Shown here: positions 12,858-13,349 of the stretch, piece by piece
Position numbering within the stretch: the first letter of the stretch is position 1
Layout of the letters: each line of letters opens with the position of its first letter
Virus record (IMG/VR): IMGVR_UViG_2541047857_000014
Direction: 5' to 3' (one strand)
Origin: a virus
Lineage: Duplodnaviria > Heunggongvirae > Uroviricota > Caudoviricetes
DNA: 64,000 nt
Notes under the pieces: model-generated
Databases searched by the model: none
What the model was told of the DNA's origin: nothing
The model's input: the letters and a program-made list of their open reading frames with translations, nothing else
Made by a program: the position numbers and the translations under genes

Positions 12858-13091
12858 TTAATGCAGCCAGCTGTCGTCTTCCCACACCTTCTGCATAATT
12901 TTCATCACTTGTTTTCTTTCTTCGTCCAGTTGCAGTCCGGTTAGTTCCACACCGTTAGAGCTACCTTTGCGAATGCGAATTACCGTTTTGGGATACAGGG
13001 GGCGCAGATTGCGGTAAAGCTCGGATTCAAGGGCGTCCAGGGTAGACTGGCTAATCTTCTGCTCTTTATCGATCATTATTTCAATGCGCAT
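12858..13091 (-). CDS. DinI-family protein (Tum/DinI-like SOS module)
   Basis: MRIEIMIDKEQKISQSTLDALESELYRNLRPLYPKTVIRIRKGSSNGVELTG...WEDDSWLH resembles DinI (MRIEVTIAK...); ATG at 13091 with GAGGTG RBS. Confidence 0.7.
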   Translation of the reverse strand: MRIEIMIDKEQKISQSTLDALESELYRNLRPLYPKTVIRIRKGSSNGVELTGLQLDEERKQVMKIMQKVWEDDSWLH

Positions 13092-13101
13092 AAAAGTCAC
13101 C

Positions 13102-13290
13102 TCAGCTGATGACATCCATTGAGCGGTTGTATTCGTGGGTTCTGATTTTTGCCATGAGTTCATCAGTCAATTCAGAAACCCACTGCAGAGCCAGCCCCTT
13201 CTCTTCATCACTACACTCACTAGCCGCTACAAGCTTAAGAAAAAAATCAATGCGCTGGAGCTTCAAAGACTCCAAAAAATAGTCCTGCAT
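13102..13290 (-). CDS. small hypothetical protein, first gene of the LexA-box promoter operon (possible Tum N-terminal-like)
   Basis: 62-aa ORF from ATG 13290 with AGGAGG RBS, lying 45-60 bp downstream of a consensus LexA box. Confidence 0.45.
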   Translation of the reverse strand: MQDYFLESLKLQRIDFFLKLVAASECSDEEKGLALQWVSELTDELMAKIRTHEYNRSMDVIS

Positions 13291-13333
13291 CTTTCCTCCT
13301 ATGACACCACACGCAATGCTGTATGCATAACCA

Positions 13334-13349
13334 CTGTTTATATTTACAG
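13334..13349. promoter_or_regulatory. LexA (SOS) box overlapping a promoter
   Basis: CTGTTTATATTTACAG fits CTGT-N8-ACAG; on the minus strand it overlaps a TATACT -10-like hexamer upstream of the 13290 start. Confidence 0.55.

Follow-up and report, generated by a model that had tools for sequence, protein, structure and literature searches.

A compact operon on the minus strand of the 64,000-nt stretch of viral DNA analysed here (hereafter the window) is very probably the SOS operon of a P2/186-type prophage of E. coli, in which a promoter held off by LexA drives an antirepressor directed against the CI repressor (TumA) together with a DinI-like protein that probably modulates RecA and the SOS response (TumB). 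The element that carries it is a P2/186-type (Fels-2-like) prophage, since the surrounding genes comprise int, a 186-type cI, an apl/cox-like gene, cII, fil, dam, A and the portal, terminase and capsid genes, and the module represents its SOS operon in the split-Tum form. In agreement with other P2-like genomes carrying split TumA/TumB versions of the 186-type Tum operon, we found the operator, the location, the first ORF, the second ORF and a CI that lacks a self-cleavage domain. The module follows replication gene A, which ends near 13800, and lies close to cos at the right-hand end of the P2-like genome. Each of its parts could be placed on the DNA and has a homologue in related phages, and all of them are on the minus strand. 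This module is already known, having been described and tested in near-identical phages, and the present analysis adds nothing new to it.

The 1.3-kb region that contains the module (12600-13900) shows 100% identity to its counterpart in E. coli S88 and in several further strains. At least 80% of this region is contained in about one fifth of the complete E. coli genomes (1,062 of 5,426), with up to 4 module copies in one genome. The features of the operon and of its immediate context are as follows:

13369..13374, minus strand: -35 hexamer TTTACA, read from the sequence; it matches the position of the annotated -35 of 186 p95
13346..13351, minus strand: -10 hexamer TACTGT, inside the LexA operator, of which it forms the first six bases
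13332..13351, minus strand: LexA operator (SOS box) TACTGTAAATATAAACAGTG, a 20-mer with 3 mismatches to the consensus TACTGTATATATATACAGTA
13295..13300, minus strand: tumA Shine-Dalgarno sequence AGGAGG, with 4 nt between it and the ATG (13290)
13102..13290, minus strand: tumA-type gene, 62 aa, at profile level a homologue of the N-terminal half of 186 Tum
12858..13091, minus strand: tumB-type gene, 77 aa, DinI family, homologue of the C-terminal half of 186 Tum
12699..12723, minus strand: terminator-like GC-rich hairpin plus UUUU, from folding, stem of ~11 pairs; likely end of the SOS operon
12635..12653, minus strand: cos site, 19-nt cohesive end GGCGTGGCGGGGATACGAG; context outside the operon, boundary of the linear phage genome
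11127-12536, minus strand: cargo gene, 469 aa, between cos and the portal gene; PADLOC model PD-T7-1, E 1.3e-196
18932..19564, plus strand: cI, 186-type immunity repressor with Pfam Phage_CI_repr and Phage_CI_C domains; presumed target of TumA

Promoter, operator and boundaries of the operon

The SOS promoter was placed by comparison with the annotated features of phage 186. It occupies the intergenic region between gene A and tumA, where the -35 and -10 hexamers are separated by a spacer of 17 nt. An alternative -10 hexamer, TATACT, is present at 13353-13348, with which the spacer would be 15 nt. A generic promoter scan of positions 12500-13900 reported no promoter, because TACTGT agrees with TATAAT at just 3 of the 6 positions.

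Within the LexA operator, the 16-mer CTGTTTATATTTACAG is found exactly at 13334-13349; its two halves, CTGT and ACAG, are both perfect, and the spacer between them consists of A and T only. When the 20-mer was compared with the LexA consensus it proved to be the single site in the 64 kb with at most 3 mismatches, and none of 100 dinucleotide-preserving shuffles contained such a site. The first-pass annotation had read this site as a near-consensus LexA operator over a minus-strand -10 element, and the 20-mer, the shuffles and the position of TACTGT inside the box bear it out. The bare CTGT-N8-ACAG pattern, on the other hand, occurs at chance level (2 sites versus 0.87 expected). Its second match, CTGTTTATTTACACAG at 25098-25113, is intergenic and outside the prophage; it lies ~600 nt upstream of a 649-aa ORF (25700-27649) and differs from the 20-nt LexA consensus at more than 3 positions.

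The frequency of the bare pattern and the negative result of the generic promoter scan would both fit a reading in which the palindrome is a chance match in AT-rich DNA, the two ORFs being constitutive or under another promoter. This reading is extremely improbable, given the result of the shuffles for the 20-mer and the fact that the -35 hexamer and the operator are identical in Fels-2 and DuoHS (E. coli HS), in the position taken by the LexA boxes of 186 and PSP3. Moreover, a lexA(Ind-) background blocks the induction of DuoHS (PMC12055606).

Downstream of the LexA-controlled promoter, the 62-aa ORF with a strong ribosome-binding site that had been predicted was recovered at 13290-13102, with AGGAGG four bases before its ATG. 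A longer version of 96 aa was rejected as a real gene: with its start at 13392 it would begin before both the -35 hexamer and the LexA box, and the 62-aa form is the one annotated in RefSeq and in the phage records. The span given for the module in the first-pass annotation (12858-13349) stops short of the terminator on one side and, on the other, of the two outermost operator bases and the -35 hexamer.

On the downstream side, the terminator that was expected after the DinI-like gene was found as the GC-rich hairpin with UUUU at 12723-12699. The 171-nt region that holds this hairpin has a folding z-score of -3.3. A strict terminator scan missed it because there are just 4 U. The sole minus-strand hit of that scan, at 13113-13096, covers the last bases of tumA together with the tumA-tumB spacer and was therefore rejected as a terminator. 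Transcription from the SOS promoter most likely ends at the 12723-12699 hairpin, just before cos. The cos site itself, 46 nt past the hairpin, was identified by comparison of the window (...CATAAAGCGGGCA / GGCGTGGCGGGGATACGAG) with the ends of the 186 record (...CATAAAGTGGGCA / GGCGTGGCGGGGAAAGCAT). The module had been described as sitting directly beside the cargo gene at the cos junction; its location at the cos end holds, but the hairpin and cos intervene before the cargo gene.

The product of this cargo gene matches PD-T7-1, a model for a candidate anti-phage defence protein, and no Pfam family was found for it. Other genes occupy this cargo slot in related phages; vB_EcoM-813R9, for instance, has a gene for a Hypoth_Ymh protein there. 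Homology of the window to 813R9 continues through cos and ends a few bases past it, while Fels-2 and DuoHS diverge from the window directly after the tumB stop codon. These breakpoints therefore indicate that cos is flanked by a separate cargo slot on either side. A 407-aa ORF (20591-21814, plus strand) starts 4 nt past the integrase gene; it is without a PADLOC match and may be an extra cargo gene at that end of the prophage.

TumA and TumB and the two halves of 186 Tum

The first-pass annotation had compared the arrangement with the tum antirepressor gene of phage 186, suggested that the product was split into two ORFs, and proposed alignment of both ORFs to 186 Tum. The second ORF aligned directly. 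The 62-aa ORF, in contrast, could not be aligned to 186 Tum by BLASTP, and the homology of TumA with Tum therefore rests on profiles. The 62-aa ORF belongs to phrog_698 (E 3.6e-38), and residues 7-44 of 186 Tum match the same positions of this profile (2.7e-5). Both proteins also match phrog_8554 (2.4e-8 for the 62-aa ORF and 1.4e-11 for 186 Tum) and phrog_1993 (2.2e-3 and 1.4e-22, respectively), and the matches to all three families share one register. When the two families were compared by hhalign, residues 4-43 paired with residues 4-43 at an E-value of 0.002; the accompanying probability of 13% is low because both alignments carry little diversity. In addition, the TumA family of the window and the stand-alone 63-aa proteins annotated as '186-type Tum proteins' were aligned by MAFFT with no gaps over the first 50 columns, and E7, L20, C26, A34 and E40 are invariant in this alignment. 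By these profile comparisons, the 62-aa ORF is a remote homologue of the N-terminal (antirepressor) half of Tum.

An AlphaFold2 model of TumA (pLDDT 89.5) predicts a two-helix hairpin with helices at residues 2-23 and 28-61; the turn between them would contain the invariant cysteine. Neither Pfam nor NCBIfam has a family for the 62-aa ORF, and no solved structure was matched by its sequence. RefSeq still labels it 'hypothetical protein'. TumA is the proper name, and annotation is the practical use of the module. Proteins closely related to the N-terminal half of 186 Tum are mostly stand-alone and 63-78 aa long; the split form therefore seems to be the rule, from which the 186 fusion departs.

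The evidence for TumB is direct. The DinI-family gene that was anticipated after the small ORF matches Pfam DinI with an E-value of 6.6e-23 (81.3 bits, against a cut-off of 24.2), and its product also matches the solved DinI structure 1GHH (E 2.7e-6). Along residues 71-145 of 186 Tum, TumB aligns without gaps at 41% identity (E 3e-24), and residue 1 of TumB falls on the internal GTG start of 186 Tum from which a truncated DinI-like product is annotated. Its score of 42.7 bits lies below the 111-bit cut-off of the NCBIfam DinI equivalog NF007893, and TumB therefore counts as a phage paralogue of chromosomal DinI rather than as its orthologue. The DinI-like genes of S88 and E. coli HS share the protein accession WP_001217575.1. 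Profile searches thus connected both ORFs to Tum or DinI (PHROGs for the first, Pfam DinI for the second), contrary to the finding of unrelated ORFs that the first-pass annotation had named as evidence against its reading. The homology of both ORFs to 186 Tum, together with the annotated tumA and tumB of PSP3, confirms a 186 tum-like arrangement split in two. A split tum has been reported for Fels-2 and PSP3 (PMC3121763), and Lemire et al. are among the earlier descriptions of this arrangement.

Which of the two products acts as the antirepressor has to be weighed separately. The active antirepressor of 186 is a 146-aa fusion that includes the DinI-like half, and in the window tumB starts 10 nt past the TGA stop of tumA in the +1 frame, close enough for the two ORFs to be translationally coupled. 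One could therefore argue that TumB is the real antirepressor, alone or only jointly with TumA, the upstream ORF being an accessory or leader or the two proteins forming a complex that rebuilds full-length Tum. Such coupling would also matter for the genetics of DuoHS, since an in-frame deletion of tumA could then lower TumB too; in principle, the DuoHS tum deletion could also disturb translation of the closely following tumB. Against a repressor-directed role of TumB, antirepressor activity in PSP3 was attributed to the upstream gene, in a personal communication quoted second-hand in PMC3121763, and the truncated DinI-like product of 186 is annotated only as one that 'modulates SOS induction'. 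Deletion of the dinI homologue had no effect on induction of the Gifsy prophages (PMC3121763). Furthermore, TumB is strongly conserved even where BLAST no longer recognises the TumA and CI proteins of two phages as related; conservation across such divergent TumA/CI pairs is ill-suited to a repressor-specific partner. We consider an antirepressor role of TumB improbable and retain TumA as the predicted antirepressor.

Induction, the CI repressor and gene A

The CI of the window is homologous to 186 CI over its full length (32% identity, E 2e-36), and a Pfam search found no S24 peptidase domain in it. Induction by self-cleavage of the repressor is therefore not expected, and an antirepressor is. 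In phage 186 this role is taken by Tum, which is under LexA control and inhibits CI by sequestering it (PMC7708051). Shearwin et al. (1998), cited in both PMC7708051 and PMC3121763, reported that 186 Tum binds CI directly and reversibly, blocking its binding to the operators.

By analogy, host LexA bound to the operator over the -10 hexamer would keep the operon off in the undamaged cell. Upon DNA damage, activated RecA would bring about self-cleavage of LexA, the promoter would fire, and TumA and TumB would be made. TumA would then bind the 186-type CI and stop it from binding its operators, by which the early lytic promoter would be released; we infer this direct TumA-CI binding from the homology to 186 Tum. 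As judged from its family membership, TumB probably acts on RecA filaments and would modulate the SOS signal rather than CI. The route of prophage induction identified in this way, from the SOS response via LexA cleavage to the action of TumA on CI, would decide whether antibiotics that damage DNA can mobilise the phage together with its defence cargo.

The role as induction switch that the first-pass annotation had proposed gains support from experiments on DuoHS in the Phollow study (PMC12055606). In that study, deletion of the DuoHS tum gene (ECHS_RS04495), the product of which is 61/62 identical to that of the window, and a lexA(Ind-) allele each abolished mitomycin C-induced lysis and virion foci. 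The need for the 62-aa ORF and for a cleavable LexA in induction has thus been shown by others in near-identical phages and, by homology, is predicted to extend to the present locus. Whether firing of the switch can yield phage is a separate matter, as productive induction of the prophage in the window is doubtful.

This doubt comes from gene A. A perfect 26-bp tandem duplication (two copies of CCCCTTGGACTCGTGGCAATAACTGT, at 13867-13842 and 13841-13816, minus strand) shifts the frame of gene A and splits it into two ORFs, one of 695 aa (13797-15884) and one of 118 aa (13444-13800). The 118-aa ORF was rejected as a separate gene, being the displaced C-terminal part of gene A. A single 26-bp unit is found in related phages, where gene A is intact (2412-2415 nt), and in most E. 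coli copies. The unit aligns where the 186 record places the nick of the replication origin, and a duplication that starts at this rolling-circle nick site may be an artefact of the replication initiator. With gene A frameshifted, productive induction is doubtful and the switch may drive abortive induction only.

It follows that the module might be a leftover in a defective prophage, which would still be SOS-regulated but give no phage output, and would act on host RecA or, in trans, on other P2-like prophages. Besides the split of gene A by the duplication, which RefSeq marks as a frameshifted pseudogene in the identical S88 copy and which is absent from the intact genes of related phages, the up to 4 copies of the module per E. 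coli genome and the occurrence of the same TumA with CIs as little as 37-42% identical to one another are compatible with this reading. However, the remainder of the prophage appears intact, with none of the int, cI, cII, portal, terminase and capsid genes missing. The truncated A protein of 695 aa retains the entire Phage_GPA domain (residues 188-510) and is as long as the A protein of 186, which is functional at 694 aa. Loss of A function is therefore not certain, and the shortened protein may still work. We regard a purely residual module as unlikely, albeit a reading to be taken seriously. It bears only on the consequence of firing and leaves the identity of the module as a LexA-controlled tumA-tumB operon unaffected.

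The diversity of the CI repressors that accompany TumA is relevant to an action in trans. Among seven phages and prophages with a TumA that is at least 98% identical, the CI repressors are 37-92% identical to one another. This variation is unevenly distributed: the helix-turn-helix domain has 33 invariant columns out of 65 and a mean pairwise identity of 70%, versus 12 of 99 invariant columns and a mean pairwise identity of 38% in the C-terminal domain. The CI of 186 differs at 15 of these invariant positions. As an aside, the CI of Klebsiella phage ST437-OXA245phi4.2 (311 aa) contains two tandem copies of the helix-turn-helix domain. The conservation pattern suggests that TumA contacts the DNA-binding domain of CI and may act across several CI types. 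The contrast between CI diversity and the near-identity of TumA goes slightly beyond the cited literature.

A bolder and more tentative extension is that one TumA allele serves as a 'master key' for differently regulated P2-like prophages, which we hold to be possible but somewhat doubtful. If TumA does bind the conserved DNA-binding domain of CI, a single SOS-induced TumA could wake several co-resident P2-like prophages. This would be the P2-family counterpart of the antirepressor crosstalk between Gifsy prophages, and a replication-defective prophage such as that of the window could still serve as an inducer in trans.

Comparison with known systems

The closest experimentally studied relative is DuoHS of E. 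coli HS. Like the window, it has an identical promoter and LexA box, with the module following gene A. Its tum gene, ECHS_RS04495, is a 189-nt ORF with a 62-aa product that differs from TumA of the window at a single residue (61/62 identical), and it is followed by the DinI-like gene ECHS_RS04500, which has the same protein accession as its S88 counterpart. In contrast to the window, gene A of DuoHS is intact and the module is followed by two other cargo genes; the CI of DuoHS is only 41% identical to the CI of the window.

Fels-2 of Salmonella LT2 is likewise collinear with the window in operator, promoter and both ORFs. Its TumA (STM2728) is 98.4% identical to that of the window, and the downstream ORF, STM2726.1, is annotated as similar to TumB of PSP3. 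Fels-2 differs from the window in having an orf97-like gene between the module and cos, and its CI is 60% identical to the CI of the window. According to Bunny et al. (2002), as cited in PMC8072944, Fels-2 makes lexA null mutations lethal in Salmonella LT2.

In PSP3 the same layout is found after gene A, with a LexA box on the -10 hexamer, a TumA of ~60 aa and then a DinI-like TumB of 77 aa. The PSP3 record describes tumA as 'similar to 5' end 186 tum; UV induction of prophage' and tumB as 'similar to dinI and 3' end of 186 tum'. TumB of PSP3 is very similar to TumB of the window, while PSP3 TumA was not detected by tblastn with the 62-aa ORF of the window. The junction between the genes also differs: the two PSP3 ORFs share a frame, with one TAG and one codon between them, whereas tumB of the window lies in the +1 frame, 10 nt after the TGA.

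Phage 186 shares with the window the LexA operator over the -10 hexamer TACTGT (in its promoter p95), the order of an N-terminal antirepressor part followed by a DinI-like part, the position after gene A near the right cos, and the type of CI. In 186, however, Tum is one 146-aa fusion, from which internal starts also give the DinI-like part alone; orf97 also belongs to the operon, and the N-terminal halves are related at the profile level only.

A more distant parallel is provided by the Gifsy-1/2/3 operons (GfoA, GftA and GfhA), in which a LexA-repressed DinI homologue is likewise combined with a small antirepressor against a non-cleavable repressor. Those phages are lambdoid, however; their operons start with dinI, and neither their antirepressors nor their repressors are related to those of the window. 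Chromosomal E. coli DinI (1GHH) resembles TumB in belonging to the DinI fold family, with a full-length match and the acidic C-terminal W-E-x-x-D-x-W motif. Taken as a whole, the same module, with proteins 98-100% identical, is on record in the annotations of PSP3 and Fels-2, and it has been put to a genetic test in E. coli HS.
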